This document shows, piece by piece, positions 1-22,180 of a stretch of DNA of 22,180 nucleotides (position 1 is the first letter of the stretch; each line of letters opens with the position of its first letter). Below the pieces are notes generated by a model. It had not been told where the DNA came from, searched no databases, and worked only from the letters and a program-made list of their open reading frames with translations. The stretch comes from Fidelibacterota bacterium (GTDB taxonomy: Bacteria > Fidelibacterota > Marinisomatia > Marinisomatales > S15-B10), in NCBI GenBank assembly GCA_046861655.1, contig JBHIAI010000017.1:1-22180 (forward strand). The letters are read 5' to 3'. A program made the position numbers and the translations under genes.

Positions 1-581
1 GGACCTCCCCCTTTGTCAGGCACCTGGCCCCGTTGCGTGTCCTGAACGTTCTCAGCCCAGTTCACATCCACTTCTCCTTCATACACGAGAATGGAACTTT
101 CTTCTTCGCCTGCCACTGCCCGGTACTTGGTTCCCCGGATGGCCGCCACTGCCGTAGGGGTCCGGATGGCCACATTTTTCTTCTCACCGAAAGCGGCTTT
201 GGCACTCACCCATATCTGACCCTTCTTCAGATTGGCGGAAAAGTCTTTCTTCAGGGGCGCCACGCTGGCCTCAGTGAGAATGAGTTCCGCGTTTTCCCCG
301 ATCCGGACCTTGCCTCCCCCGGTAAGGGTGATCTCCGCCCGGGATTTGGCCTTGGTCTGCACCCCATCCTTTACAAAAACAGGGTGTTTTACCCTGGCCT
401 TCTGCCACTCCTGGGCCTCCGCCGGCCGCACCTGAACCATCCCCAGGGGAAGAGTTATCTTCCCGAATTCTCTGGCAGGCCCCGGGGAATTTCTAACATT
501 GAACGGGGCAGGCGGGGAAACCGAAATGGCGACGGTGGCCACAACGACAATCAACGTCATCAAGATAAGTTTTGGTTTCAT
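1..581 (-). CDS. FecR-domain protein with N-terminal signal/TM segment (3'-truncated by window edge)
   Basis: Not in the ORF track because it has no stop in the window. Manual translation from ATG at 581: MKPKLILMTLIVVVATVAISVSPPAPF...GVQTKAKSRAEITLTGGGKVRIGENAEL...LKKGQIWVS...IRTPTAVAAIRGTKYRA...ILVYEGEVDV, open to the edge. These are FecR-like motifs. GAGGGAGGGAG lies upstream of the ATG. Confidence 0.85.
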   Translation of the reverse strand, partial: MKPKLILMTLIVVVATVAISVSPPAPFNVRNSPGPAREFGKITLPLGMVQVRPAEAQEWQKARVKHPVFVKDGVQTKAKSRAEITLTGGGKVRIGENAELILTEASVAPLKKDFSANLKKGQIWVSAKAAFGEKKNVAIRTPTAVAAIRGTKYRAVAGEEESSILVYEGEVDVNWAENVQDTQRGQVPDKGGG

Positions 582-600
582 GGTTGTTCTCCCTCCCTCG

Positions 601-642
601 CGGAATAAGTTATGAAACATCCCATGTTTATACACGGAATAA
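601..642. promoter_or_regulatory. Possible operator/promoter region upstream of the FecR gene
   Basis: AT-rich stretch with inverted repeat AAACAT-ccc-ATGTTT (615-629) between two direct copies of CGGAATAA (601-608, 635-642). No convincing -35/-10 pair. Confidence 0.25.
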
Positions 643-647
643 TGAAC

Positions 648-699
648 GGTTAGGGGGTTAAGGGTTAGGGGGTTAGGGGTTAGGGGTGAGAGGTCAGGG
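648..699 (+). repeat. G-rich 7-8 bp tandem repeat (GGTTAGG-like), G-quadruplex-capable
   Basis: GGTTAGGGGGTTAAGGGTTAGGGGGTTAGGGGTTAGGGGTGAGAGGTCAGGG. TTAGGG occurs at 650, 665, 673 and 680. Confidence 0.85.
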
Positions 700-713
700 C
701 GACGAATTACGTT

Positions 714-740
714 TGTCCCGGTCTCCCGTCTCGCGTGTCC
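714..740 (+). repeat. Degenerate heptamer repeat (GTCTCCC family)
   Basis: tgtcccg gtctccc gtctcgc gtgtcc lies directly after the xdhC stop and resembles the TCTCCGG units at 9928-9962. Confidence 0.45.
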
Positions 741-2168: not shown

Positions 2169-2196
2169 AGGAGTGATAGGATATCCTACGCTCTTA
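2169..2196. repeat. Palindromic element, AGGAT...ATCCT family
   Basis: AGGAGTGATAGGATATCCTACGCTCTTA with perfect palindrome TAGGATATCCTA (2177-2188). Similar to 20749-20778. Confidence 0.5.
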
Positions 2197-4978: not shown

Positions 4979-5826
4979 GCGGTCACACACTTTCTTATGG
5001 CCCGTCTGACGAGAACGTCCACAAGGTCCCGCCTGAACTCTCGGGTTCCCCGTACGTCCGTGATGGGTTTCGCCTCGCTTTTCGCCCGTTGGGCGGCACC
5101 AGCGATTACCTCTCCGGTGAGGGCCTTTCCCTCCAGGAACCGGCTGGCCTTTTCTGCCATCAGGGGGGTGGGAGCCACCGCTCCCAGGACGATCCTCGCT
5201 TCAACACATTTTCCCCCCTCAAGATGAACATAGGCTGCCACCGAAACCACCGCCAGGGAATTGGAAGCCCTGCGGCGGAATTTCTCGTACCGGGCGGCCG
5301 CACCCGGCGGCTTGGACGGAACGACAATCCTGGTCAGGATCTCATCCCCGCGTCGAATCGTCTCCCGGTTGTCGATGAAGAAATCCTTCAGCGATACCCG
5401 CCGGATTCCCTTCGAAGAGACCAGCTCCACCTCCGCGCCCAGAGCCATCAGGATCACAGGAAAATCCCCACAGGCCACAGCACTGCAAATATTGCCACCC
5501 ACAGTAGCCCGTGTCCGAACCTGGGGGGAGGCAAATGTCACCACCATGCCCGCCAGTTCGGGCAGTGTCTCCCGGACCAACGGAGACCTCTCCACCATGT
5601 GGGCGGTACACCCCGACCCGATGAAGATCGTGGAGTCCACCTTCTCAATCAGGGAAAGTTCCTCCAGCCCCTTCAATGAAATGACGTGGCTGGCCTGACG
5701 GATGCCGGAGTCGATATCCACCAGCAAATCCGTCCCCCCCGCCAGAACCTGGGCCTCCTGGAGTCCGGCCAGGAGGGAACACGCTTCGTTTAGATCCGCG
5801 GGGCGGTGGTAGTGGAAATTCTTCAT
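4975..5826 (-). CDS. Xanthine-dehydrogenase-family FAD-binding subunit (HcrB/CoxM-like, lacking the [4Fe-4S] loop)
   Basis: LAGGTDLL, ASPQVRTRATVGGNI, LGAVAPTP and PITDVRGTREFR motifs, 283 aa. Confidence 0.9.
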   Translation of the reverse strand: MKNFHYHRPADLNEACSLLAGLQEAQVLAGGTDLLVDIDSGIRQASHVISLKGLEELSLIEKVDSTIFIGSGCTAHMVERSPLVRETLPELAGMVVTFASPQVRTRATVGGNICSAVACGDFPVILMALGAEVELVSSKGIRRVSLKDFFIDNRETIRRGDEILTRIVVPSKPPGAAARYEKFRRRASNSLAVVSVAAYVHLEGGKCVEARIVLGAVAPTPLMAEKASRFLEGKALTGEVIAGAAQRAKSEAKPITDVRGTREFRRDLVDVLVRRAIRKCVTA

Positions 5827-5985: not shown

Positions 5986-7965
5986 CTACTGCCCACTGCC
6001 GCCTGCCGCCCGTTCCAGGCCCCTGAGGGCGTCTTTGGTGGAAAAAATCTCCTCAAGGTATTCAAGTTCAGAGGATGGACCCCCTTGTTCATCGATGAGC
6101 CGTTCGGCGATTTCCAGGGCCCGGGGCGCTCTTGACCGGATCCGTTTCACCAGGGGCCGCCATCTCTGGGACGGAAACTCCCCCGTCAGTAGACTGGACA
6201 CAGAATGGTCCTGGAAGAACGCTTCAACCTCCCGCCATTTGTCCCCCCTTTGAGCCCTCTTTTTCTTCACCTTACCCTTTCCCTCCACAATCTCCCGCAG
6301 TTCATTCCAGTCGATTATCCCATCGATGAGTCCTATCTCAAGGGCCTCCCTGACGGAAACCATCTGGCCGGTAAAGATGAGGAACTTGGTGAGCCCAGGG
6401 CCGATTCGCCGGGCCGTCCTCTGAGTTCCTCCCAAACCGGGATAGATACCCAACCCGGTCTCCGGAAAAGCAAACCGGGCGGACCCCAGTGCCAGCACCA
6501 TATCCGCTGTCAGAGCCAATTCCAGGCCTCCGCCCAGGGCAAACCCGTTGACTGCGGCAATGATGGTCTTGTCCGATCTATCAATCCTGTTGAACAGTCC
6601 CTGGACCTTCCGGGTGAATGTCACGATCTCACGGATACTCTGGGTACGGAGGCGATCCACAAAAAACTTCAGGTCTGCGCCAGCGGCGAAAGCCTTCCCG
6701 TACCCTGTGATCACGACAGTGTGCACCCGGTCATCCCCCTCGAGGCCCATGAAGGCCTCGGAAAGCTGGTCCACCACGGTGGGATTCAGGGCATTCAGAT
6801 CCTCCGGCCGGTTCAAGAACACCACCCCGGTTCCATCCCTTTTTTCCTGGGAGATGAAGGCTTGCTTCCAGCGGTCCCCTGACAGGGATTCCGGCACCCT
6901 TACCCGTCGGGAATGGCTCTCTGTCACGCGGCGAACCAGGTCGCGGACACCCGGTTCCCCGGTTTCCTGGTACAGTTCTCCGGGCCCCCGGCTCCACCTG
7001 AGGCCGATTCTTGCCCCCTGATTAAGATCCCTGACCGTGCAAACCTTTTCCTCCAACAACTGTCCGCAGGCAAAAAAGACTGCTCCCAGCAAGCGGTCCT
7101 CGATGGCCTTCCGGCGATCTGAATCCCCTGTCCGGTCAACTTCGATGGTCCATGGATCCCCTGCGCGGGCCTGACGCTCCAGGATTCCCGCCGGCCGGTA
7201 GAATGACCCAAAGGCCTCCCCCAGGGTCTGGCTCGCCTTGTAAGCGATGGACACCCCGGTGGCATTCATGAGAGCAAATGGACCCATACTGCACCCGAAT
7301 GTTTCGCAGGCCACCCTGTCGATCAAGCCCGTCTCTCCCAGTCCCTCTTCCACCATACGGGCCGCCTCGTTCAGCCACGGAACGAAGAACCGGTTCACCG
7401 CGAACCCGGGGCTATCCTTGCACACGATGGGATCCTTGCCACATCTGCGCATGAACCACAGGGTTTTCCGGAAGACGGTATCGTCTGTGGCTTTGCCTTT
7501 GACCACCTCCACCAGACGGTTCTTGGCTGCGTGATAGAAGAAGTGAAGGCCCAGGAACCGTTCCGGATGAGGAACGGACTTAGCCAAAATGGACACGGAA
7601 AACGACGACGTATTGGTCCCCACAACTGCGTCGCCGGCCACCGTTTCTCCCACCCTTGCCAGAAGGTCCTTCTTCACACCGAAATCTTCAAACACGGCCT
7701 CGATGACCAGCTGACACCCAGCCGTATCCCGCAAGTCGACCGTGGGCTCAATACGATTCACGATTTCAGCCGCCTGTTTCTCCGAAAACAGTCCCCGGTT
7801 GGTCCCTTCGTCCAGGGTCTCCTTGACCCTTTCCAATCCCCTTTTGAGAAAGCGGTCCTCCGTATCGACCATGATCACTTTCATCCCCTCCTGGGCGAAT
7901 TTCTGTGCCAGGGCCGAACCCATGGTCCCGGCTCCCACGATGCCCACGGTGCGTATCTCAGCCAT
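5986..7965 (-). CDS. 3-hydroxyacyl-CoA dehydrogenase / enoyl-CoA hydratase fusion (HAD N-terminal, crotonase C-terminal)
   Basis: True start MAEIRTVGIVGAGTMG at 7965. The longer ORF overlaps dch. Motifs IEAVFED, TNTSS, HFF, KDSPGFAVNR, then LNRPEDLNALN, AFAAGAD, GFALGGGLEL, PETGLGIYPGLGGTQR. 659 aa. Confidence 0.92.
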   Translation of the reverse strand: MAEIRTVGIVGAGTMGSALAQKFAQEGMKVIMVDTEDRFLKRGLERVKETLDEGTNRGLFSEKQAAEIVNRIEPTVDLRDTAGCQLVIEAVFEDFGVKKDLLARVGETVAGDAVVGTNTSSFSVSILAKSVPHPERFLGLHFFYHAAKNRLVEVVKGKATDDTVFRKTLWFMRRCGKDPIVCKDSPGFAVNRFFVPWLNEAARMVEEGLGETGLIDRVACETFGCSMGPFALMNATGVSIAYKASQTLGEAFGSFYRPAGILERQARAGDPWTIEVDRTGDSDRRKAIEDRLLGAVFFACGQLLEEKVCTVRDLNQGARIGLRWSRGPGELYQETGEPGVRDLVRRVTESHSRRVRVPESLSGDRWKQAFISQEKRDGTGVVFLNRPEDLNALNPTVVDQLSEAFMGLEGDDRVHTVVITGYGKAFAAGADLKFFVDRLRTQSIREIVTFTRKVQGLFNRIDRSDKTIIAAVNGFALGGGLELALTADMVLALGSARFAFPETGLGIYPGLGGTQRTARRIGPGLTKFLIFTGQMVSVREALEIGLIDGIIDWNELREIVEGKGKVKKKRAQRGDKWREVEAFFQDHSVSSLLTGEFPSQRWRPLVKRIRSRAPRALEIAERLIDEQGGPSSELEYLEEIFSTKDALRGLERAAGGSGQ

Positions 7966-7970
7966 GGTCT

Positions 7971-8747
7971 CTACCGGTTCTTCCACCGGGGGGGGCGCTT
8001 TTGAACGAAGGCGTCGATGCCTTCTCCGGCGTCGTGAGTGGACATAAGCTCTTCGAGATAGAATTTCTCCACGCTCTCCAGCTGGTTTCTCAAAACGCGG
8101 TTGAATTCCCATCGGGCAGCCTGGACTCCGTACCTCAACGAAGACGCACTCTTGGGGAGAATGTGTTCTCTGACCCATTTCTCCACCCCCGATTCCAGGG
8201 CCTTCCGGTCCTCAAACAGACGGGTTATGAGCCTCATGGAGGCCATCTCTTGAGCCGAAAATGTTTTCCCGGTCAAGATCACCTCATCGGCCCGGCTCTG
8301 CCCGATCTTCAGGGGAAGAATGAGGGAAGCCTGTGGGGGAAAAAGCCCGAGATTCATTTCGGGCTGTCCCAACCGGGCCGTCCCATCGGCAAACAAGAAA
8401 TTACACATCAAGGCCAGTTCCAGACCCCCTCCCAGACAGTTCCCGGACACCAGGGCCGCTGATGGAATGGCCAGATCCATAAGGGTAAGAAACAGCCCGT
8501 GAAATTGTTTCAGCATGGCCCCCGCCTGTTCACGCCTGTGCTCTGGAACACTGGCTCCGAAGCAGAAATGATCGCCGGCACCGGTCAATTGGACCAGCTT
8601 GATGTCCGGTTGGTCCCGGAGACCATTCAGGGCCCTTTGAAGCTCTTCCATCATAGGTCCATCAAGGATATTCCCCTTCGGGCGGTTCAGGATCAGGCGG
8701 ATCACCTGACCCTCGTTGAGAACTTTCTGGAGGATAGGGCCGGCCAT
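7971..8747 (-). CDS. dch: Cyclohexa-1,5-diene-1-carbonyl-CoA hydratase
   Basis: Crotonase family with RPKGNILD, HFCFGASVPEH, CLGGGLE, GQPE, SASSLR and YLEELMSTHDAGEG, resembling Thauera Dch. Next to oah and had. Confidence 0.9.
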   Translation of the reverse strand: MAGPILQKVLNEGQVIRLILNRPKGNILDGPMMEELQRALNGLRDQPDIKLVQLTGAGDHFCFGASVPEHRREQAGAMLKQFHGLFLTLMDLAIPSAALVSGNCLGGGLELALMCNFLFADGTARLGQPEMNLGLFPPQASLILPLKIGQSRADEVILTGKTFSAQEMASMRLITRLFEDRKALESGVEKWVREHILPKSASSLRYGVQAARWEFNRVLRNQLESVEKFYLEELMSTHDAGEGIDAFVQKRPPRWKNR

Positions 8748-8754
8748 TCGGATA

Positions 8755-9840
8755 TCACCGGGGCATGATGGCTTCGATCAATTCATCGTTCCAGGGGTGA
8801 CCTTCCGCGAGCATCCGGCGAAGTTTGGCGTAGTCCACCACCCGGTTGTCCTTGGGACCTTCGTGGAAGGCCCGGAATCCGGCCCTGGCTTCCGTCATCA
8901 TGTTCAGGGCCAGCCAGTCCCGGTTGGTCTGCTGGTTCCGGTCCCAGTGCTCCAGCTTCTTCTTTCTGAGACTGTTCAAAGTCTTGCTAAGACAGTCGGG
9001 CATGGTGGACAGCAGCTTGGTGCACATGACGTCAACAGCCCGGTCCAGGGGATCCAGATCGATGGTCCCTTCCGCCAGAGTCCTCTTTCCATCTTCCAGG
9101 GCACTCCCCGTTTTTCGTCTTCCGTAGACCAGCTCTCCCGAGTCGTCCAGCCACCGGTCCGTTATCACCAGGGGATTCCTCACAACCACGCCGTCTACGT
9201 TCAGGACCGGAACCGCCTGGGATATCAATCCGAAGGAGAGAGCCTCGTAGGCACTCCACAGCTCGCAGAGGGTACAGCTCTGCATGGCCCGCTCAATGCC
9301 CACATACAGGTGGAGAAAATCGGTGCTGCCGCCATCGGGGGCACTCCCGTGCTTCGGCCCGGCCTGACCGAAAACGGCCAGATCACTGGCCACGGAAAAG
9401 TCGCAGGCCATCCCCATTTCCTGTCCCCCGGCGATACGCAGGCCATTTACCCGGCAGATGACCGGTTTGTCGCAATGAAGGATGGAGGTGATCATGTCGT
9501 TGAACAGCCGCATGTACTGCTTGTACTCCAGGGGCCGGCCAGCGTAGTATTCGGCATATTCGGTGACGTTTCCGCCCGTGCAGAAGGCTTTGTCTCCCAC
9601 CGCAGACAGTACTACCGCCACCACAGAGCGATCCATGGAGGCCTGCCGGAAGCCCAGAATAATCTCTTTGACCGCCTGGGTTGTGTAGGAGTTATACTGC
9701 TTCGGGTTGTTCAGGAATATCCAGGCATTGTACAGACCTTCCACGGGCTCCCCGCTGGAATCCAGACAGGGACGAACCTCATACAGAATCTCCGAGAACT
9801 CCCTCTCCACCAGATTGTGGCTTACCAGATCATATTTCAT
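8755..9840 (-). CDS. oah: 6-oxocyclohex-1-ene-1-carbonyl-CoA hydrolase (Oah/BamA)
   Basis: NNPKQYNSYTT, AFCTGGN..EYAEYYAG, QYMRLFNDM, FGQAGPKHGSAPDGGSTDFL and WLALNMMTEA signatures. Confidence 0.95.
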   Translation of the reverse strand: MKYDLVSHNLVEREFSEILYEVRPCLDSSGEPVEGLYNAWIFLNNPKQYNSYTTQAVKEIILGFRQASMDRSVVAVVLSAVGDKAFCTGGNVTEYAEYYAGRPLEYKQYMRLFNDMITSILHCDKPVICRVNGLRIAGGQEMGMACDFSVASDLAVFGQAGPKHGSAPDGGSTDFLHLYVGIERAMQSCTLCELWSAYEALSFGLISQAVPVLNVDGVVVRNPLVITDRWLDDSGELVYGRRKTGSALEDGKRTLAEGTIDLDPLDRAVDVMCTKLLSTMPDCLSKTLNSLRKKKLEHWDRNQQTNRDWLALNMMTEARAGFRAFHEGPKDNRVVDYAKLRRMLAEGHPWNDELIEAIMPR

Positions 9841-9856
9841 GGGTATTGTACACTCC

Positions 9857-9962
9857 GTTATGCGTTATGGGTTATGCGTTCGACGTTTGATGTTCGACGT
9901 TCAGATCTCAACCTTAACCTCAACCTGCCTCCCGTCTCCTTTCTCCGGTCTCCGGTCTCCGT
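9857..9962 (+). repeat. Mosaic of short tandem repeats in the had-oah spacer
   Basis: 7 heptamers in one register (gttatgc gttatgg gttatgc gttcgac gtttgat gttcgac gttcaga, 9857-9905), 3 hexamers CTYAAC (9907-9924), 5 heptamers of TCTCCGG type (9928-9962). Confidence 0.88.
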
Positions 9963-9965
9963 TTT

Positions 9966-11039
9966 TCATACATCCGGCACCAGGACCGGTCTTTTCACGA
10001 TCCTCTCTCCAGGATCCTCGGGCGGCACCACCAGTCGCTGGAATACGGAATTGATCTCCGACAGGGGATACGACTCGGTAAACGGAGCTATGGTGACCTT
10101 CTCATCGGCCACCAGTTTCACAACATCCGGAAACAGTTCGGGCTTACAGCCCCAGGTACCTATTACTTCGGCGTCAAAGGCCATGAGGTTACTGAGCCGC
10201 ACCTCCACCTTGTCCAGGGTGAATCCTACGATGGAAAGGGTTCCGGCAGTGCCCAGGAGGGCAAACGCCAGTTCCTGCCCCTCGCCGGTACCGGACACTT
10301 CATAGATTTTCCAGCTGTGACTGGGAGCGCCTATCTCGCCAGCCAGGTCCTTAACCTTTTTCTTCACTTCTCTCACATCCAGGTCCCGGTTATTCACCGT
10401 GGCGGCTGTTCCAATCTCCCCAAGACGGTCCAGTCGCTCCTGGGAGATATCGATGGCCACCACCTTCGCCCCCAGTACCTGCGCCAGTTGGGCAGCATAG
10501 ATCCCCACTCCCCCCACTCCGATCACTACCGCAAGGTCCCCGGGCTGGAGGTCACTTTTTGCCATCACCTGGTAGGGCGTCGACACCGCATCGGAAATGA
10601 CGGCCAATTGGGCCAGGGAATGTTTGCCCAGAAGATCGTCCGGGACCGGGCACAGGAACCGGGCCGGGACCACCACGTGGGTGGCAAAACCCCCGTGGAA
10701 GTCGTTCCCGGGCATCACCTGATTCCGGCAGATGTTGCTTCTCCCCCTCCGGCACAGGTCGCATGTTCCGCAGGGGAGAACGGCCGGCACGATGACCGGT
10801 TTCCTGTTGAGGGAGGACTGTCCTTCCACCACCCTACCGCTGATTTCGTGCCCCAGGATGAGAGGGAGCTCGTGCCGGGTGGGGACACCGTAGTGCCAGA
10901 AACTCAAATCTGTATGACACACGCCACATCCGGCAACCTCCACCAGAACCTGGTCCTCCTTGAGTTCCGGAACAGGATACGAGACCTTTTCAAGGGGCCT
11001 GTCAGGAGCGATCATCTGATACCCTGTTATCCGGGTCAC
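9966..11039 (-). CDS. had: 6-hydroxycyclohex-1-ene-1-carbonyl-CoA dehydrogenase (Zn-dependent MDR)
   Basis: VAGCGVCHTDL, LGHEISG, PAVLPCGTCDLC...IC, MPGNDFHGGFA, RLSNLMAFDA..GTWGC. GTG start with GAGG upstream. Confidence 0.93.
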   Translation of the reverse strand: MTRITGYQMIAPDRPLEKVSYPVPELKEDQVLVEVAGCGVCHTDLSFWHYGVPTRHELPLILGHEISGRVVEGQSSLNRKPVIVPAVLPCGTCDLCRRGRSNICRNQVMPGNDFHGGFATHVVVPARFLCPVPDDLLGKHSLAQLAVISDAVSTPYQVMAKSDLQPGDLAVVIGVGGVGIYAAQLAQVLGAKVVAIDISQERLDRLGEIGTAATVNNRDLDVREVKKKVKDLAGEIGAPSHSWKIYEVSGTGEGQELAFALLGTAGTLSIVGFTLDKVEVRLSNLMAFDAEVIGTWGCKPELFPDVVKLVADEKVTIAPFTESYPLSEINSVFQRLVVPPEDPGERIVKRPVLVPDV

Positions 11040-11041
11040 GG

Positions 11042-12307
11042 TTATTCCTCGAGATTCGTGTTCTCCACCAGGATGGCAGTTCCCTGTCCTCCCCCCACGC
11101 AGGCCGAGGCGATCCCGTAGCGGTCTCCCCTCCTTTGTAACTCCAGGGCCAGGGTCAGGGTCAGACGTGTACCTGTGGCCGCCAGGGGATGACCGATGGC
11201 AATGGCACCCCCGTTCACATTCATCCGGTCGCGGTCGATTCCCAGTTCCCTCTCCACGGCGATAATCTGGCTGGCGAAGGCTTCGTTGATCTCGAACAGA
11301 TCGATCCTGTCCAGAGACAGTCCCGACACGTCCAGCAGTTTCCGTATGGCAGGAACGGGACCGATGCCCATGAACCGGGGGTCCACCCCTGTGGATGCCG
11401 ACGCCATCACCCGGGCCAAAGGGGTGACCTTTTTCGTTTTCACAAAATCCTTCGAGACAACCACCACCGCCGCTGCCCCATCCACAATACCGCTGGAATT
11501 CCCCGCGGTTTGAACCCCGTCCGGATCGAAAACAGGGGGCAGTTGAGCCAGCTGTTCCAGATCGGTTTTCCGGATGCTTTCATCCTTGTCCAGCTGGCCC
11601 CCCGACGGGTTGGTCTGGTAGGGCCTGGGTCGAAAGCCCTCCATTTCCAGGACTCCCGACGCCACGGTCACCATCTCTTCCGACAGCACCCCGTTTCCGC
11701 TGGCCGCCGTGGCCAGGGTGTGGGACCGGAGGGCATAGGCGTCGGCCTCCTCCCGGGTGATCCCGTGCTTGCGGGCCAGATTCTCCGCCGTCTGTCCCAT
11801 GGACAGTTCCACTGCCGGATCCTTCAACCCCTCCCACAACATATCTCCAAACTGGAGCTGCCCCAGCCTGTATCCCAACCGGTTTCCGAAGGACGAGGTA
11901 GGGGCCCGGGTCATGTTCTCGCTTCCTCCCGCCAGTCCGGCCCTTCCCTTCCCCAGGACTATCTGTTCCGCCGCTGAAACGATGGCTTCGAATCCCGAGC
12001 CGCAGATGCGTTGCACCATCATGGCGGGAACGGACGGGGGAATACCACAGTAAAGTCCTACGTGCCGCGGCAGGTAGATGGCGTCGAATCCCGCCTGGAT
12101 GATATTGGCGAAGACAACGTGATCGATGTCTTCCGGATGGATTCGACACCGCCTGATCGCCTCCCGACCGACAACGATGCCTAGATCTGTGGGAGAGACA
12201 GTCCCCAGGGTGCCGCAGAACTTGCCAAAGGGGGTGCGGACCCCTCCCAACAGATAGACGTCGTCGTAGCAGGCGGCAGACCCGTAGTGAGTAGGAGAAT
12301 CAGGCAT
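11042..12307 (-). CDS. Thiolase (acetyl-CoA C-acyltransferase)
   Basis: RTPFG, QRICGSG, NEAFA, GHPLAATG and SACVGGGQG catalytic motifs. Start set at ATG 12307, overlapping the activase stop by 8 nt. Confidence 0.93.
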   Translation of the reverse strand: MPDSPTHYGSAACYDDVYLLGGVRTPFGKFCGTLGTVSPTDLGIVVGREAIRRCRIHPEDIDHVVFANIIQAGFDAIYLPRHVGLYCGIPPSVPAMMVQRICGSGFEAIVSAAEQIVLGKGRAGLAGGSENMTRAPTSSFGNRLGYRLGQLQFGDMLWEGLKDPAVELSMGQTAENLARKHGITREEADAYALRSHTLATAASGNGVLSEEMVTVASGVLEMEGFRPRPYQTNPSGGQLDKDESIRKTDLEQLAQLPPVFDPDGVQTAGNSSGIVDGAAAVVVVSKDFVKTKKVTPLARVMASASTGVDPRFMGIGPVPAIRKLLDVSGLSLDRIDLFEINEAFASQIIAVERELGIDRDRMNVNGGAIAIGHPLAATGTRLTLTLALELQRRGDRYGIASACVGGGQGTAILVENTNLEE

Positions 12308-13070
12308 CGCGGGCCAGAATGGCCGCCCCCTGGGCCACCGCGTACAGGGGATTGGAAAAGACGGTGACATCCACGCCCAGATTCTCTGCCAGCAAATCTC
12401 CTATGTAGCCGTGGAAGGCGATGACCCCTCCACACAGAAACACGGGAAGATCCGTGCGAACGGGCAGCTTGCATATGCGGTTCACGATGGACAGGTAAAT
12501 GCCCCGGGCCATATCTTCAATGGGAACACCGTCAAATTTCCACCCCAGGATTTCTGTTTTGGCAAACACGGTGCAAAAACTGTTGATCACTCTGTCAGAA
12601 GACGATTTCCGGGCCAGATCACTCATTTCCTCAGGTTCCATTTCCGCCTTTTCCGCAATCTCCGTGATGAAGGCACCTGTGCCTGCGGAACACTTGTCGT
12701 TCATGTAAAAGCTTTCCACCTCGCCCCGGGGACCGCTCCGGATTATCTTGATGTCTTCCCCGCCGATATCGATGATGGTTTTCGGGAAGGGATGCCCGTC
12801 TGAGACACCCGCGGACGCGCAGATCAATTCTGTTTTCTTAAGAGCACTGTCCAGGGTATCCCGTCCGTATCCCGTGCTGCAGGTGCCGGCAATACCGAAG
12901 TGATCCTGAATGTCGTCCAGAACTTCCTGAAAGGTCTCCCGCCGGCGGGTCAAGGTGGGAATCACCTTCCGGTAGCAGGCCTCTCCTTTTGAATCCACCA
13001 CCACAAACTTGGTGTACAAAGAACCGAGATCGACACCGAGATAATGACCGTTTTCCCGGCTTTCCATCAT
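12300..13070 (-). CDS. 2-hydroxyacyl-CoA dehydratase activase (HgdC/FldI/HadI-type ASKHA ATPase)
   Basis: GVDLGSLYTK, STGYGR, IDIGGEDIK, MNDKCSAGTG and INSFCTVFA (two [4Fe-4S] Cys), CGG. Single 256-aa module. Confidence 0.92.
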   Translation of the reverse strand: MMESRENGHYLGVDLGSLYTKFVVVDSKGEACYRKVIPTLTRRRETFQEVLDDIQDHFGIAGTCSTGYGRDTLDSALKKTELICASAGVSDGHPFPKTIIDIGGEDIKIIRSGPRGEVESFYMNDKCSAGTGAFITEIAEKAEMEPEEMSDLARKSSSDRVINSFCTVFAKTEILGWKFDGVPIEDMARGIYLSIVNRICKLPVRTDLPVFLCGGVIAFHGYIGDLLAENLGVDVTVFSNPLYAVAQGAAILARDA

Positions 13071-13073
13071 CCC

Positions 13074-14018
13074 TTAGGGGTGGGTTATCCGTTTCTCCAC
13101 CAGCCGGATTAATGCCGCAAGGGTACCGTTGGTGGGTGTGGCAACGCCGTGCCTTTTGCCATACTCCACGATTTTCCCGTTCAGATGATCAATCTCGGTG
13201 GGGAGACCCTTTTCCACATCTACAAGCATGGAAGGCCGGTGCCGGCCTCCCTTTTTCATGTAGTCGAGAGCCTGATCCCGGAATCCCTCTGGCAGGTGGA
13301 TACCTTCCTTTCCCGCCACCTCAATACCCTCATCCAGGATGGCGGTCACCGTTTCCACTCCGAAGGCCGTTTCCATGACATCCTCCATAGTCAGTCCAGT
13401 CAGAGCCGACACGGGACACAGGGCTGCGTTCATGATGGCCTTGGTCCACACATGAACCCGGATGTCCCCGGGGATTTGGGTTTTCAGTCCAACGGAATTG
13501 AGCAGGCCCACCAGTCTTTGGGCCAGCAACTCCCCGTGGTCCGACAGGGGAGCCAGGTAATTGGGAGGGTTAAAGAATGTCACGTCCACTGTGTTCAAGT
13601 CTTCCATGCTGCCCGCATAATTGATCACCATCCTCAGGGTGCGGTCTCTCCCGAACACCCTTGCCACCTCTTCTTCATTGTCGATGCCGTTCTGGGCGCT
13701 CATGACAAACAGCGAGGGGGACGCCACCGGCAATAACTCCTTAAGAACCCGTTTCAGGTAAGGGGTCTTTACCGAGATGGAAACCAGGTCCAGATCGTGC
13801 CCTCCCAGTTCGGTGACGGAATAGCACGTTTTGGCCACTTTCACCTGTTTCTCGATGGCATTTACCAGGCGAATCCCCGAATCCCGTATCCGGTCTGTTT
13901 TCTCCCGTACGACGTCGCAGGCCACCACCCAGGCTCCAGCGTCCGCGAAATGAGCGGCCAGAATACTCCCCACGGGACCCATCCCGACTACACCGATCTT
14001 TAACGATGCATTGTTCAT
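13074..14018 (-). CDS. Ketopantoate reductase (PanE/ApbA) family 2-oxoacid reductase
   Basis: GMGPVG Rossmann motif, ISVK, AQNGID, WTKAIMN, RPSMLVDVEKG.PTEIDHLNG and PTN motifs. Asp at the end of beta-2 (VACD). Confidence 0.88.
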   Translation of the reverse strand: MNNASLKIGVVGMGPVGSILAAHFADAGAWVVACDVVREKTDRIRDSGIRLVNAIEKQVKVAKTCYSVTELGGHDLDLVSISVKTPYLKRVLKELLPVASPSLFVMSAQNGIDNEEEVARVFGRDRTLRMVINYAGSMEDLNTVDVTFFNPPNYLAPLSDHGELLAQRLVGLLNSVGLKTQIPGDIRVHVWTKAIMNAALCPVSALTGLTMEDVMETAFGVETVTAILDEGIEVAGKEGIHLPEGFRDQALDYMKKGGRHRPSMLVDVEKGLPTEIDHLNGKIVEYGKRHGVATPTNGTLAALIRLVEKRITHP

Positions 14019-14021
14019 GAT

Positions 14022-14168
14022 TTAACCACAGAGCCACAGAACATGATCCATGCAAAATGCAAAGTCCAGAGTGCAAAACCCAAAATCGGACGTGGCATCC
14101 GGTGAGTAAGCCGCTGAGAGGGGTCCGCGATGGATAACTTTTTCACTTTTACATTTTTCAATTTTCAT
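14022..14168 (-). CDS. Putative 48-aa bridging mini-ORF / remnant of an inserted element
   Basis: MKIEKCKSEKVIHRGPLSAAYSPDATSDFGFCTLDFAFCMDHVLWLCG*. ATGA overlap with the upstream stop, and TAA-ATC-ATG junction to the PanE-like gene. Confidence 0.3.
   Translation of the reverse strand: MKIEKCKSEKVIHRGPLSAAYSPDATSDFGFCTLDFAFCMDHVLWLCG
14026..14167. repeat. Imperfect inverted heptamer arrays plus octamer doublet
   Basis: ccacagag ccacagaa (14026-14041). tgcaaaa tgcaaag tccagag tgcaaaa cccaaaa (14051-14085). Opposite-sense tttttca cttttaca tttttca attttca (14139-14167). Confidence 0.7.
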
Positions 14169-15361
14169 TCTGCCTTGAGTTGTTCGATAAAGGTTTCCAG
14201 CTTGGTCCGGTTCTGCCCATCGGAGAAAAACCGGAGGTCGTTGAGGTCCCCGTCAATCACCAGGGTGTCGACCCCTGTCTCCTCCTGAAGCCGCCCCGGG
14301 AGACCGAACCGGCTATTGGTGTTGTTGAAACAGGTCTTCGAATCATGGAAGACGACTCCGTCCACGCCGTAATCCTCTACCATCTGTTTCATCACAGACA
14401 GTTTGGTGTTCTCACCCCGGTTGATGAAAATCTGGGTGAAGGCATAGGCCATGGATTCCACGGGTTTGTCAGGGTCAAAGTCCTCAAAAATCCAGCTGTT
14501 ACAGTAGGTGGACGCCACCACCGCAGCCCCGTTCTGGGCAAAGATTTCCGACAGGAACCTGAGTCTTCCCCACACGGGCATGCCGTCCCAGTAGATGCGC
14601 ACCCGTTCGTCTTGTACGGCCGGAATGCCGTCTTTTGTCCGGCGGTTCAATTCGTCCAGGAGATTTCTGTAGAAGTCCACGCACACCCGGGTTCCCCGGA
14701 GCACCACAATGGGAGCCATCAGGATGGTCCCGTCAAAAAAGGTGAGGGGAGCTGGAGAATTCTGAGCCGTTTCAAGCACTCTGGCCCACAGCGTCGAGGC
14801 CTCATGACCCAGGCGCACGGTTTCCACCAGTCGGTCCGGATCCAGGGGATGCCCCACCACCTCCTCCCCCGCCAGAATCAATTCTTCCAGCTGGGCCACA
14901 ACGTGATCAATATCGGCCTGGCTTATCTCTTCCAGGTACCGGGGAGGGAATACCCCCGCCACAGGGCAGTCAAATTCCCGGCCGAAATAGTTGAACCATT
15001 CCGCCACTTCCCGGCACTGGTTGGTATTGTAGACGATAAGGTCGGGATGAGGAATCGATGGGAGTCCGTACGCCACGGTCAGGGGCGTTTCCCTGAGAAG
15101 CCACGCTCCGATGTCGCTGGTAAGGTAGGAACAGATCTCGCTGTCGTATCCGGCCTGATGGGCTCTGGGAATGGTTCGCTCGGTAAGACGCTTGGCCCCC
15201 AGGATAGCGCCATGATTCTCGGGGAAATAGACATTGAATCCCAGGGCACGGAGGATCTCCGCCGGTCCGGCACTGCTGCACCAGGCCACGGGGGAGGTCA
15301 GATGGGTATAGTAGTCCTGCAGAAGACCGTTCAGCAGGGTCTGGGATTTCAATCGGGGCAT
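14165..15361 (-). CDS. 2-hydroxyacyl-CoA dehydratase family alpha-type subunit (HadB/FldB-like)
   Basis: VAWCSS...FPENHG, three Cys (EICSY, TNQC, SKTC), RIYWDGMPVW, DGVVFH and IDGDLND motifs. 398 aa. Confidence 0.88.
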   Translation of the reverse strand: MPRLKSQTLLNGLLQDYYTHLTSPVAWCSSAGPAEILRALGFNVYFPENHGAILGAKRLTERTIPRAHQAGYDSEICSYLTSDIGAWLLRETPLTVAYGLPSIPHPDLIVYNTNQCREVAEWFNYFGREFDCPVAGVFPPRYLEEISQADIDHVVAQLEELILAGEEVVGHPLDPDRLVETVRLGHEASTLWARVLETAQNSPAPLTFFDGTILMAPIVVLRGTRVCVDFYRNLLDELNRRTKDGIPAVQDERVRIYWDGMPVWGRLRFLSEIFAQNGAAVVASTYCNSWIFEDFDPDKPVESMAYAFTQIFINRGENTKLSVMKQMVEDYGVDGVVFHDSKTCFNNTNSRFGLPGRLQEETGVDTLVIDGDLNDLRFFSDGQNRTKLETFIEQLKAE

Positions 15362-15417: not shown

Positions 15418-17202
15418 CTACTCCAGACTGATGACGTACACCTTCCCAACACGCCCTCCCGGTTCATCGAGGGATCCGGACAGATCGTCCTCGTTATCGG
15501 GTTTCGACCCGTACAGACGTTCGATGTCGGCTTTGAACACCTTCCCCACCACATTCGGCGCCAGTTTCATGGAGGGAGTCAATTCCTGGTTTTCGATGGT
15601 CAACTGTCTGTCGAGAAGCATGGTGGAGCCCAACCGGTAATAGGGAATATTCAGGGCCTGGTTCAGTTCCCTTAAACAGGTGCGAAGACACCGGGACAGT
15701 TGCTCGAGACTTCGCGGCCGACGGCATCCCTTTTTCAGCCGCCCTTCATCGGGCATCTGGGAAAACATGGACTTATTGGGAAACAGCAGCGCCACCGGGT
15801 AATCCCGTCCGCTTCCCGCCACGAAGGCGTGGGAAAGAAAGGCGCAGTCTTTCACGATCAAATTCTCAATTTCCGTCGGTACAACCATCTCTGCGTTGGA
15901 GAGCTTGAACATGCGGTCCTTCCGGGATATGAGCCGAAGTCCCTGTTCGGTGAACTCCCCCACGTCTCCTGTCCGGAACCAGCCGTCTTCGGAGAGAGCT
16001 TCCCGGGTGGCCTCCTCATTCTTGAAATACCCCTTCATGACGTTGGGACCTTTCACCAGGATCTCCCCGTCGTCGGCCAGTCTTACTTCAACCCCAGGGA
16101 TGGGTTTACCCACGACCCCCCGTTTCCGGGGCAGATTGGGATCGGTGACGGTGCAACAGGGTGAAGTCTCAGTCAGCCCCCATCCTTCAACCACCGGAAT
16201 TCCCCGTTCCTCAAAGATTCTGGATATGTTCTCCGGAAGCGGTGCCGCGGCCGTAAAAACGAACCGTAACCCCTCGTGAAAAATGACCCTGTCCACGGCC
16301 CTGTCCTGAAGGGCCCGGGTGACCAGTTCCTGGTAGATCCGGGGTACGCTGAAAAAGACGGTAGGGTGAACTTTTTCCCAGTTCTCGAGCAGGGCGTCGG
16401 TATTCTTCCCGTACCCGTTTTCCAATGACAGTACCGCACCGTTGGTGATGGCGGCGTATTTTTCGAAGATGCCCCCGAAACTGTGGTGCCAGGGCAGATA
16501 CGACAGAAACCGGTCCCTGTGACTCAGCTTCCACAGAACCCTCATGGCCGACTGCTGCGACAGAATATTTCCGTGGGTCAACTGAACACACTTAGGTCTC
16601 CCCATGGTGCCCGAAGTGTACATCATGAGAGCCACAGCACCGGAAGAAACCCCGGTCCCTTTGATCTCCCCGGGGGTTCCGTCCGACTCCAGGAGTTCCC
16701 TGAAGGGAATCAGGTTGCCGGTTCCCGGGCTATCCAGGGGATCGAAATGAACGATACCGGCAAAGTCCCCGGGTGAGCTCAGTTTGTCGTACTGCTCCTG
16801 ATCGGACACCGCCACCAGGGTGGGTTCACAGAACCTGACCAGGCTGTTCGCCCTGGCCCCCGGATAGCCGGCAAAAATGGGCACGGAAACGGCCCCCATG
16901 GCCATGACAGCCAGTTCCGTTTCCAGCATTTCCTGGCGGTTTCGGGAAAGGATGGCCACCCGGTCGCCTTTCTTCAGACCGAGCCGGGCCAGGAAAGTCT
17001 GGATGGAGGCCACCTCCTTCTGAAACGCCGACCAGGAAAGGGGCACATACCTTCCGTCTCTCACCTCCTGGTAGATAGGGCTCTGGTCAAACTTGTGGGC
17101 GTTTTCGTTGAGCATGACGGCCAGGTTCCGGGGGTATTCCGGAAGGGAATGGTCAGACCGGAAAACCGTGGGGATTCTCACGCCTCCGCTAAACTGATTC
17201 AT
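15418..17202 (-). CDS. AMP-forming acyl-CoA ligase (long-chain FACS-like)
   Basis: YTSGTMGRPK, SYLPWHH, EGWGLTETSP, GPNVMKGY, WFRTGDVG and ELTPSMK motifs. Start set at ATG 17202 (14-nt overlap with bcrD). Confidence 0.9.
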   Translation of the reverse strand: MNQFSGGVRIPTVFRSDHSLPEYPRNLAVMLNENAHKFDQSPIYQEVRDGRYVPLSWSAFQKEVASIQTFLARLGLKKGDRVAILSRNRQEMLETELAVMAMGAVSVPIFAGYPGARANSLVRFCEPTLVAVSDQEQYDKLSSPGDFAGIVHFDPLDSPGTGNLIPFRELLESDGTPGEIKGTGVSSGAVALMMYTSGTMGRPKCVQLTHGNILSQQSAMRVLWKLSHRDRFLSYLPWHHSFGGIFEKYAAITNGAVLSLENGYGKNTDALLENWEKVHPTVFFSVPRIYQELVTRALQDRAVDRVIFHEGLRFVFTAAAPLPENISRIFEERGIPVVEGWGLTETSPCCTVTDPNLPRKRGVVGKPIPGVEVRLADDGEILVKGPNVMKGYFKNEEATREALSEDGWFRTGDVGEFTEQGLRLISRKDRMFKLSNAEMVVPTEIENLIVKDCAFLSHAFVAGSGRDYPVALLFPNKSMFSQMPDEGRLKKGCRRPRSLEQLSRCLRTCLRELNQALNIPYYRLGSTMLLDRQLTIENQELTPSMKLAPNVVGKVFKADIERLYGSKPDNEDDLSGSLDEPGGRVGKVYVISLE

Positions 17203-20775: not shown

Positions 20776-21945
20776 TTACTCCCATAGTTTGATCATGTCG
20801 GCAAAGGTGCCTGCCTGTTCTTTGATGACATGGAACTGTCCCAGGTTCTCATGATACTGGAAACTGAAATGGCGGATGTGGTGTCTGTCCATGGCTTCCT
20901 CCAGCCTGGGCCTGTCCAAAAGGGCTGGATCGCAGAAACTGGGTGCACAGAAAATAACGCCCTGGGCATCCCGGTTCTGAACCTGCCGGGCGAAGGCGTC
21001 CTCCTTGGGCCGGTCACCGTCATAGATGGCAGAAGAGACGGTGCCCGCCTTCAGATAAGTCTCCACCAGCACGCCCAAGGGGTCATCGGTGTCATCGGCC
21101 AGGGCCCCAGTGATCGACCTTGACCCCAACTGGAAGTCGTCGTCAACTACGTAACACCCGGCATTCTCAATGGTCTTGATCAATCCCAGAGGGGGCTGTT
21201 CGCAGAATGACCCTGATATGACAACCCGTATCTTGTCCTCAGGCTCCCGGTCCACCTTCTCCAGGATTGAGAGGACCCGGGTGAGAAAATCATTGTGGTC
21301 CTCTACACTCATGATGTAGCCCGCCCGCAGTACCAGGTAATGATCTACCGCGGAGATCCGGTGGGGAACCTGGGCCCTGAAATCGGACAGTCTTTTGACC
21401 AGACGGCGGTTCTCGTTGTATACCCTTATGGCCCGGTTGAGCCGGTCGATGGTCACCCGGCGACCGTTCAGTTTCTCCAGATGTTTTGCCAGGAGTTCAA
21501 GCTGGCGACGGTAGAACTGCCCTCCGGTGGACGGATCGAGATTCTGGGGAAAGTCAAGATAGAAAACGAAGGACTGGGGAAAATGCAGCCGGAACACTCC
21601 CGACAGGTTGCGAATGACGTCACAGATGGAGGGAAACAGAAATCCATCGAAATCCTTGAAATTCCCATCCAGGGCCATTTCTATGACCGTGCGGGGCAGG
21701 TGACAGATATACGATTGGAAAAAGGCATCCCCTTTGACCACGGACACTCTCTCCCCCCCTCCGAAGATTCCCACGGGAAGCATACCGGCCGCATGGATGA
21801 TCTCCCTGGGGACATAGATGGGCAAAAACCCGATGACCCTGCGGTCCGTCCCCTGTTTCTTCCACTGGGTGACGTAATCGAAGGAAAGGTCCTCGTAGAG
21901 ATCCCGGGCCAGCTCCATGGCTTCAGGATAGGTCTTAGGGACCAC
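20776..21945 (-). CDS. bcrC: Benzoyl-CoA reductase subunit C
   Basis: LYEDL, YVPREIIHAAGMLP, QSYIC, FPSICDVIRNLSG, GSFCEQPP, APSFCDPALL and EQAGTFAD.IKLW motifs. GTG 21945 is preferred because GGAGG lies 6 nt upstream. The alternative is ATG 21960. Confidence 0.95.
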   Translation of the reverse strand: MVPKTYPEAMELARDLYEDLSFDYVTQWKKQGTDRRVIGFLPIYVPREIIHAAGMLPVGIFGGGERVSVVKGDAFFQSYICHLPRTVIEMALDGNFKDFDGFLFPSICDVIRNLSGVFRLHFPQSFVFYLDFPQNLDPSTGGQFYRRQLELLAKHLEKLNGRRVTIDRLNRAIRVYNENRRLVKRLSDFRAQVPHRISAVDHYLVLRAGYIMSVEDHNDFLTRVLSILEKVDREPEDKIRVVISGSFCEQPPLGLIKTIENAGCYVVDDDFQLGSRSITGALADDTDDPLGVLVETYLKAGTVSSAIYDGDRPKEDAFARQVQNRDAQGVIFCAPSFCDPALLDRPRLEEAMDRHHIRHFSFQYHENLGQFHVIKEQAGTFADMIKLWE

Positions 21946-22180
21946 CGGGCTCCTCCCCATTGGATTTCTGCCAGATCCGGTTGAGCATCCCCCGGAACTG
22001 TCTCAGCTGTTCCGGGGTCAGGACGCTGACCAGGTCACTGTCCACGGAGGTGGCAATTTCGTCCATACGACCAAGCAGTCTGCGTCCCTTGGGTGTGAGA
22101 TACAGTCTCACCACCCGCCGGTCGGACGAGGTTCGCCTCCGCTGGACCAGTCCATCCTTTTCCAGCCTGTCTGCCAGTCC
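21935..22180 (-). CDS. MarR family transcriptional regulator (5'-truncated by window edge)
   Basis: Manual translation: GLADRLEKDGLVQRRRTSSDRRVVRLYLTPKGRRLL...LTPEQLRQFRGMLNRIWQKSNGEEPGGP*. Shows the winged-helix DRR and LTxxG motifs. Its stop overlaps the start of bcrC. Confidence 0.9.
   Translation of the reverse strand, partial: GLADRLEKDGLVQRRRTSSDRRVVRLYLTPKGRRLLGRMDEIATSVDSDLVSVLTPEQLRQFRGMLNRIWQKSNGEEPGGP

Follow-up and report, generated by a model that had tools for sequence, protein, structure and literature searches.

How does an enzyme subunit whose relatives come in pairs manage without its partner? The question is raised by a stretch of 22,180 nucleotides (contig JBHIAI010000017.1; "the window" below means this whole stretch) from a Fidelibacterota bacterium whose genome (assembly GCA_046861655.1) is 92.8% complete. 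Near the genes of a class I benzoyl-coenzyme A (CoA) reductase stands one further gene of the benzoyl-CoA reductase/2-hydroxyacyl-CoA dehydratase (BCR/HAD) family, of the catalytic, alpha type, with no beta gene to go with it; we call it the orphan. According to the accessible portions of PMC11574389, characterised 2-hydroxyacyl-CoA dehydratases are alpha/beta dimers in which the beta cluster stores the catalytic electron. The original prediction offered two ways out: either the orphan pairs with itself, or it takes turns with BcrB on the reductase's own beta-type subunit, BcrC. We lean, with rather better than even confidence, toward a form of the first: a beta-less homodimeric radical dehydratase that converts (R)-aryllactyl-CoA to cinnamoyl-type CoA esters, is primed by its own activator, and feeds beta-oxidation and then 4-hydroxybenzoyl-CoA reductase (Hcr) and BCR. 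The genes and sites on which the argument turns are these:

14165 to 15361, minus strand: the orphan, an alpha-type BCR/HAD (PF06050) subunit without a beta, 398 residues in a single open reading frame; the proposed homodimeric aryllactyl-CoA dehydratase.
15218 to 15283, minus strand: the orphan's active-site segment, W27-x2-S30 ... E48, aligned to W34/S37/E55 of HadB and invariant in 113 of 113 relatives; BzdO has Ser44/Glu65.
14330 to 15133, minus strand: the span with its predicted [4Fe-4S] ligands C77, C116 and C344 plus an extra invariant cysteine, C287, each found in 113 of 113.
12300 to 13070, minus strand: a stand-alone ATP-dependent activator (archerase) of 256 residues (TIGR00241, 145 bits, above the cut-off of 125) with cluster-cysteine motifs DKC127SAGTG and SFC166TVF.
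13074 to 14018, minus strand: a KPR/PanE-family 2-oxoacid reductase of 314 residues (TIGR00745, 188 bits, above cut-off); the proposed arylpyruvate reductase.
15418 to 17202, minus strand: an AMP-forming acyl-CoA ligase of about 594 residues (PF00501; best NCBIfam matches PRK06187 and PRK12582, below their cut-offs); the proposed aryllactate-CoA ligase.

Is the partner truly absent, or has it simply wandered off to another part of the genome? The window holds exactly three PF06050 genes (BcrC, BcrB and the orphan), so that the single extra family member of the original prediction is confirmed, and the whole source genome holds the same three, with BcrC as its sole beta type. Neither a profile hidden Markov model (HMM) search nor tblastn found a further beta subunit in this genome, which is 7% incomplete. 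Activator-family genes above cut-off also number three, namely the gene at 12300-13070 in addition to BcrA and BcrD.

The orphan's relatives give a broader answer. From a scan of a genome collection, which gave at least 599 stretches and confirmed 448 of these, we took the best 80 loci, 49–86% identical to the orphan and drawn from 79 genomes (two of the loci are copies within one genome, and many end early at contig ends). Next to the orphan no dedicated beta was found in any of the 80, nor any recurrent, unexplained gene of a size to be a partner; beta-type genes occur in 16 (by a profile built from these loci), of which 14 have BcrC, always accompanied by a BcrB of its own, and 2 have BzdN. 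No alpha–beta fusion appeared among 88 longer relatives, a weak negative. When the 79 genomes were searched whole, five (their completeness is not shown) had a single PF06050 match above cut-off. We also drew 151 genomes, filtered at 95% completeness or better, from the Desulfobacterales order to which genome G079 belongs: 54 contained an orphan match of at least 47% identity, below which the best match reached 38%, and among the 50 of these not searched before, 18 had exactly one PF06050 match, which in 17 of the 18 is the listed orthologue itself. These genomes are related and not independent; still, a missing 5% of genome cannot account for 18 lone matches in 50. The clade, therefore, requires neither BcrC nor any other PF06050 partner, and the proposed swapping with BcrB on a shared BcrC becomes unlikely. 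Elsewhere the clade stands beside BzdN or a third beta type in place of BcrC, and in Geobacter argillaceus three paralogues of the orphan clade occur, along with a single fragment and no intact beta. Within the window's own class, 22 of the 34 genomes having any PF06050 match have exactly three (identities judged from match lengths only). A canonical 2-hydroxyacyl-CoA dehydratase is an alpha/beta heterodimer with a dedicated beta gene; for the orphan no such gene was found in its genome or in the related loci.

Two kinds of locus from these searches deserve a word of their own. Two or three orphan-clade paralogues share a genome at L056, L090 and L091 (G046), at L052 and L100 (G042) and at L046 and L101 (G036), which suggests substrate-specific versions. 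Loci L093 and L094 (genomes G006 and G007, which also have the orphan) carry a third class I BCR-like alpha/beta pair, sister to BcrB and possibly of MBR type, that scores about 250 bits against the BcrC model and 199 against the BcrB model (L094).

If there is no partner, could the protein be its own? Folded in two copies with an alignment of 113 relatives, chosen from matches in the database and the genome collection, the orphan gave an ipSAE of 0.72, and the best of three controls gave 0.00; of 30 solved homodimers 20 attain the mark we used, as against 1 of 23 single chains. The modelled interface is symmetric, contacts agree between runs at 95% or better, and pLDDT is at least 93. The prediction thus favours the homodimer option, and the orphan probably works in that form.

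What kind of subunit is it? It is, plainly, a catalytic (alpha-type) subunit of the BCR/HAD radical-enzyme family: the fold, the three cysteines, the glutamate and a linked activator are all there. It scores 208 bits against PF06050 (cut-off 28) and falls short of every NCBIfam model: HadB 190 bits (cut-off 750), BcrB 132 (487), BzdO 86 (449) and DCCP 58 (350). Among PDB sequences HadB is closest (2e-45), ahead of MbdO (1.6e-27) and BzdO (1.9e-22). The AlphaFold model (pLDDT 92) likewise finds HadB best by Foldseek, at a TM of 0.92 and an rmsd of 2.1 Å, with BzdO and MbdO at 0.85–0.88, DCCP at 0.73–0.80 and beta subunits at 0.70–0.73. C77, C116 and C344 align with the three HadB cluster cysteines; because they and W27, S30 and E48 are invariant in all 113 relatives, motif and cysteines are not there by chance. 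W-x2-S, E-N at 48–49 and N-x-C at 114–116 are common to HAD-like alphas; V119 stands at the position of the BzdO-type histidine (His131); and Y79 and Y286 align with the thioester-binding Tyr97 and Tyr298 of BzdO. Two further cysteines caught our attention: C287 (14501-14503), present in all 113 relatives, sits at the column of a DCCP/BzdN cysteine for which other alpha subunits have no equivalent, and C28 (15278-15280), kept in 112 of 113, lies one column away from another DCCP cysteine.

The original prediction took the active-site motif to favour a dehydratase over a second ring reductase. As an observation it stands: the open reading frame reads W27-C-S-S30 and P47-E48-N49, with the glutamate 21 residues past the tryptophan; the site matches W34/S37/E55 of HadB (PDB 3O3M, residue numbers counted along the printed alignment); and the window's BcrB does have YTFVPG there. 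Ser37 and Glu55 of HadB are presumably catalytic, a role that the portions consulted of PMC11574389 and PMC7771511 do not confirm. As an argument it is weak. The BzdNO structure, so far as the available text of PMC11971306 describes it, shows a hydrogen bond between Ser44 and Glu65 at the matching site of BzdO, a reductase, and the glutamate is present in BcrB and MbdO too, that is, family-wide. Since BzdO has both residues, the motif cannot tell a dehydratase from a reductase. The dehydratase assignment, which we consider likely, rests instead on gene context, on fusions to KPR, and on a predicted HadB-like fold and pocket.

Nor can a tree decide the function. When 61 rows out of 189 were selected for an IQ-TREE analysis under LG+G4, the orphans formed a clade of their own (98/98 support; 100/100 with the KPR fusions), outside BcrB, outside a pair that we label Mbr-like, and outside BzdO, on a poorly supported backbone. 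Nesting within a reductase clade, which the original prediction had named as an outcome that would refute it, was not seen; dehydratases are represented in this tree by unannotated alpha/beta pairs from Fusobacterium vincentii and Proteus mirabilis (439 and 503 bits against the HadB model), which serve as proxies and are not HadB, FldB, HgdA or MbrO themselves. An early FastTree grouping of the orphan clade with BcrB and the Mbr-like pair was not kept by IQ-TREE. Approximately unbiased (AU) tests on 30 rows rejected a union of the orphan with BcrB alone (p-AU 0.0016) and did not reject one with paired Desulfobacterota-type alphas (p-AU 0.39) or with the HAD-like proxies (p-AU 0.135). The clade spans Fidelibacterota, Zixibacteria, Bacteroidota, Proteobacteria, Desulfobacterota, Acidobacteriota, Gemmatimonadota, Planctomycetota and Verrucomicrobiota.

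The company that the orphan keeps says more. Neighbours in the 80 loci include an activator of its own, distinct from BcrA/BcrD, in 72 (here, too, the original prediction holds), a CoA ligase in 55, KPR in 52, a thiolase in 46, a 3-hydroxyacyl-CoA dehydrogenase/enoyl-CoA hydratase (HCD/ECH) in 43, Had/Oah in 34, HcrA in 22, BcrC in 14, IorA in 12 and a PaaK-like ligase in 8, with ACT-domain and TRAP genes also among them. In the 36 loci of at least 20 kb the activator is present in all 36, the ligase in 30, KPR in 28 and BcrC in 10. (The names IOR and PaaK are those that we take these neighbours to bear on the strength of their Pfam domains.) The ligase is AMP-forming in the window and in 33 loci; in 22 loci the orphan has beside it an ADP-forming ligase, which is reversible. 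AMP-forming ligases activate free acids. Reductase, ligase, alpha subunit and activator make up the four functions of a sequence from 2-oxoacid to enoyl-CoA.

Some of these genes have gone further and joined. Among the 88 longer relatives, 87 are KPR fused to an orphan paralogue; the remaining one, P0407, joined to an FAD/FeS oxidase, was left unused, for it has no N-terminal motif and looks frameshifted. The KPR gene at 13074-14018 is the only ApbA_C gene found in the source genome, and some KPR-annotated enzymes are D-2-hydroxyacid dehydrogenases, according to the portion available of bioRxiv 10.1101/2024.01.05.573888. The fused paralogues are themselves odd: in nine of nine loci (L042, L063, L066, L067, L075, L082, L085, L087 and L088, e.g., L088:6741-9152) all three cluster cysteines are gone, and among the 87 database fusions (within P0321-P0408) C116 is kept in none and C77 and C344 in three each. 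Such a protein may serve to tether KPR as a pseudo-subunit devoid of a cluster. The Gemmatimonadota loci have it upstream of an intact orphan, and between the two stands another activator gene, the second of the locus and a divergent one. KPR is also fused to an aldehyde:ferredoxin oxidoreductase (AOR) at L058:16244-19165, the case that was checked, with the same family in L054 and L077, and to an activator at L027:16129-17967.

What, then, might all this chemistry be for? The orphan lies in a run of genes on the minus strand (bcrC-bcrB-bcrA-bcrD, CoA ligase, orphan, KPR-family reductase, activator, thiolase, had, oah, dch, the HCD-ECH fusion, hcr-like genes, mocA and xdhC), separated, with the starts that we adopted, by gaps of -17 to 159 bases. 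The remaining members that bear on the route are as follows:

[quoted passage not shown]
11042 to 12307, minus strand: thiolase (TIGR01930, above cut-off).
7971 to 11039, minus strand: benzoyl-CoA pathway genes had 9966-11039 and oah 8755-9840 (TIGR03201 and TIGR03200, above cut-off) and dch 7971-8747 (best match TIGR03189, below cut-off).
5986 to 7965, minus strand: an HCD-ECH fusion (Pfam domains), candidate for the beta-oxidation of cinnamoyl-CoA.
2186 to 5826, minus strand: 4-hydroxybenzoyl-CoA reductase-like (Hcr-like) genes, an FAD subunit at 4975-5826 and a fused 2Fe-2S/Mo subunit at 2186-4990.

In the route that we propose, the KPR-family enzyme would reduce an arylpyruvate, itself derived from phenylalanine or tyrosine, and the resulting (R)-aryllactate would be converted to its CoA ester by the AMP-forming ligase. 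The private activator would hydrolyse ATP and inject one low-potential electron; at the cluster held by C77, C116 and C344, with its open iron site near S30 and E48, a ketyl radical would form and hydroxide would depart, leaving the enoyl-CoA. The cluster of the second protomer would replace the missing beta subunit as the electron store. The HCD-ECH fusion and the thiolase would then take cinnamoyl-CoA or 4-coumaroyl-CoA to benzoyl-CoA or 4-hydroxybenzoyl-CoA plus acetyl-CoA, products on which the operon's own Hcr-like enzyme and BcrABCD would act. The Hcr-like genes fit the tyrosine branch of this scheme, and the window's HCD-ECH fusion is 41% identical to the 679-residue fusion of an IOR-KPR-activator-orphan locus (L083). 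The source genome yielded no benzoate-CoA ligase above cut-off (the window's own ligase scores 95 bits against that model, far under the cut-off of 375), and neither IOR (IorA/B) nor PaaK was found in it; the orphan module is therefore the most plausible feeder of BCR. Probably, then, the orphan and three neighbouring enzymes turn phenylalanine-derived acids into benzoyl-CoA precursors in oxygen-free environments. In this picture the orphan's anatomy and conservation, the want of a beta gene, and the linkages and fusions of genes are observed; fold and dimer are predicted; and substrate, direction and electron storage are inferred. Two other entries were considered. Carboxylation through IOR was rejected for the source genome, where IorA/B and PaaK were not found, and a second idea, that phenylacetyl-CoA is hydroxylated to mandelyl-CoA, was dropped: an oxidation has no evident use for a low-potential electron donor driven by ATP. 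As for Pad genes, the source genome has six Mo-enzyme matches, and in the three scanned (as partial sequences) no family exceeded its cut-off.

How new would this be? In the open literature (subscription papers lay outside the search) we found no published characterisation of a beta-less 2-hydroxyacyl-CoA dehydratase. By sequence, the orphan resembles the catalytic half of such an enzyme, yet it is neither the canonical pair nor a BCR nor a DCCP. [quoted passage not shown] FldBC/FldA/FldI of Clostridium sporogenes is likened here by description only. The resemblance is in the proposed reaction, phenyllactyl-CoA to cinnamoyl-CoA; FldABC is a heterotrimer with a CoA-transferase (both points as given in the accessible parts of PMC13416013), whereas the orphan is one type of subunit. 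The product of the orphan module would be beta-oxidised to benzoyl-CoA. FldABC, for its part, serves reductive fermentation. BcrB, MbdO (9G87) and BzdO (8S02) share family and fold with the orphan, the glutamate in all, the serine in Aromatoleum BzdO, and the thioester-binding tyrosines; the orphan is 26% identical to the window's BcrB, lies in a separate clade and has no His131, and class I catalytic subunits, unlike it, need a beta subunit and a two-subunit activator. DCCP/DCCP-R (and YjiM/YjiL of E. coli) is, like the orphan, one gene with one activator gene, and DCCP is a homodimer (PMC7317905, as far as its available text goes, also our source for the motif). The orphan lacks the seven-cysteine motif that binds [8Fe-9S], having four invariant cysteines aligned with those of DCCP (C287 among them), C28 one column off and the rest absent, and it has an alpha-type active site.

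A cluster much like this one comes from Desulfococcus multivorans. As presented in the available portions of PMC5109826, its phenylacetate/phenylpyruvate region (Dmul_24830-24900) contains iorAB, an ACT protein, a "putative phenylpyruvate reductase," an activator, an "R-phenyllactate dehydratase subunit alpha," two ligases and TRAP genes, together with a thiolase and an HCD-ECH fusion, and lists no beta; the organism is without padB and padEFGHI, grows on phenyllactate, and reaches benzoyl-CoA by a step that the authors call unclear. In gene order, and in lengths as reported there (319 residues for the reductase, 269 for the activator, 416 for the "dehydratase alpha," 518 and 526 for the ligases), the region agrees with our clade's Desulfobacterales-type loci L073, L086 and L089. 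D. multivorans is described with a class II BCR and IOR, and the source genome has a class I BCR with no IOR found. A 2026 paper (PMC13416013, in the part available) sketches the chemistry from phenylpyruvate through cinnamoyl-CoA to benzoyl-CoA for another organism, with a singular FldB-like gene that went undetected. It is tempting to go further, to a widespread homodimeric dehydratase as the central enzyme of an anaerobic route, so far unrecognised, from phenylalanine, tyrosine or arylpyruvate through aryllactyl-CoA and cinnamoyl-CoA to benzoyl-CoA, in which strict anaerobes with IOR and a PaaK-like ligase would carboxylate phenylacetyl-CoA to phenylpyruvate and lineages with cluster-less fusions would use one [4Fe-4S] cluster per dimer; to this wider claim we would give a little less than an even chance. 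Were it true, breakdown of phenylacetate by this carboxylation would fill a stated gap in sulfate reducers without the Pad pathway. A beta-less clade would also show how this radical chemistry proceeds without an accessory subunit, and it offers an assayable candidate for the conversion of phenylpyruvate or phenylacetate to benzoyl-CoA in anaerobes without Pad genes, which PMC5109826, in the portion consulted, calls unclear. There is a practical side too: genes of the clade are labelled [quoted passage not shown] in databases, so counts of class I BCR in metagenomes can be inflated.

Several points speak against a homodimeric aryllactyl-CoA dehydratase, and we gather them here. Because dimers of HadBC and DCCP are solved, the success of the two-copy model may reflect likeness instead of binding. 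The source genome is 7% incomplete. The W-x2-S/Glu motif, tried as a marker of dehydratases, had to be ruled out. The tree does not place the clade with dehydratases, and the AU test did not reject sisterhood of the orphan with BcrB and the Mbr-like reductases (p-AU 0.48). KPR is absent from 28 of the 80 loci and from 8 of the 36 long ones. The thiolase and HCD-ECH could serve the lower benzoyl-CoA pathway alone. Cluster-less paralogues in some lineages imply that the second cluster is perhaps dispensable, which weakens the electron-storage step. The link to D. multivorans is one of gene order and lengths, with predicted annotation, and a named record of the protein was sought and not found; in the portions of PMC5109826 available, the reaction that its authors assign to the trio runs the other way, from phenyllactate to phenylpyruvate, and the text does not say that the dehydratase itself was detected.

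Could the protein be a dehydratase for something else? A beta-less radical enzyme might hydrate the glutaconyl-CoA of the lower pathway to 2-hydroxyglutaryl-CoA (and on to 2-oxoglutarate via KPR), or act on aliphatic 2-hydroxyacyl-CoAs derived from branched-chain amino acids, as would suit an orphan whose surroundings are the genes of central benzoyl-CoA metabolism (34 of 80 loci have Had/Oah), a reversible ADP-forming ligase adjoining it in 22, and a closest solved enzyme that acts on a leucine derivative. We think this unlikely: the AMP-forming ligases of the window and 33 loci point to activation of free acids, the IOR, PaaK-like, ACT-domain and TRAP neighbours point to aryl acids, and the D. 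multivorans cluster is tied to phenylacetate and phenylpyruvate in the text consulted. Quite unlikely, to our minds, is a second ATP-dependent aryl-CoA reductase, homodimeric and devoted to ring reduction or to the reductive removal of a substituent. Serine and glutamate are common to the orphan and BzdO, the sisterhood just mentioned is not rejected, the clade in the window's class keeps close company with BCR (those 22 genomes of 34), and C287, extra and invariant, occupies the place of a double-cubane ligand, a hint that the redox chemistry may be out of the ordinary; the orphan nonetheless falls outside BcrB and BzdO, has no counterpart of His131, takes HadB as its closest fold, and as a reductase would leave its linkage and fusion to a 2-oxoacid reductase unexplained.

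The dehydratase might also be alone, a monomer (or bound to something outside PF06050) re-reduced by its activator far oftener than canonical enzymes are. Loss of cluster ligands from the KPR-fused paralogues would allow for a dispensable second cluster, and PF06050 searches are blind to an unrelated partner; the confident symmetric homodimer model, the dimeric state of all solved family members and the want of a recurrent partner-sized neighbour in the related loci make this decidedly improbable. Most improbable of all is the hybrid of the orphan with a shared BcrC. It draws on BcrC being the sole beta-type gene of the source genome, in the same operon, and on bcrC lying nearby in 14 of 80 loci; it must contend with the lone-match genomes, with the clade's life beside BzdN or a third beta elsewhere, and with the description of BCR-type enzymes as permanent heterotetramers in the available text of PMC11971306.

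A few minor features of the window and its relatives remain. A promoter scan ran at chance level (2 found, 2.1 expected). The Hcr-like enzyme scores 960 bits against the HcrA model (cut-off 995) and only 130 against the HcrB model (cut-off 405); its 2Fe-2S and Mo subunits are fused (934 residues) and its FAD subunit is short (283 residues), and because of that fusion and a short FAD subunit far under the HcrB cut-off its architecture differs from the Thauera type. Loci L096-L099, L126 and L132 hold a group of short (about 330 residues), highly divergent PF06050 proteins; the three that were scanned match NCBIfam models barely or not at all. Directly upstream of bcrC lies a cut MarR-family regulator gene (21938-22180, minus strand), also present in six related loci, and at the opposite end of the contig there is a FecR-domain gene (3-740, minus strand).

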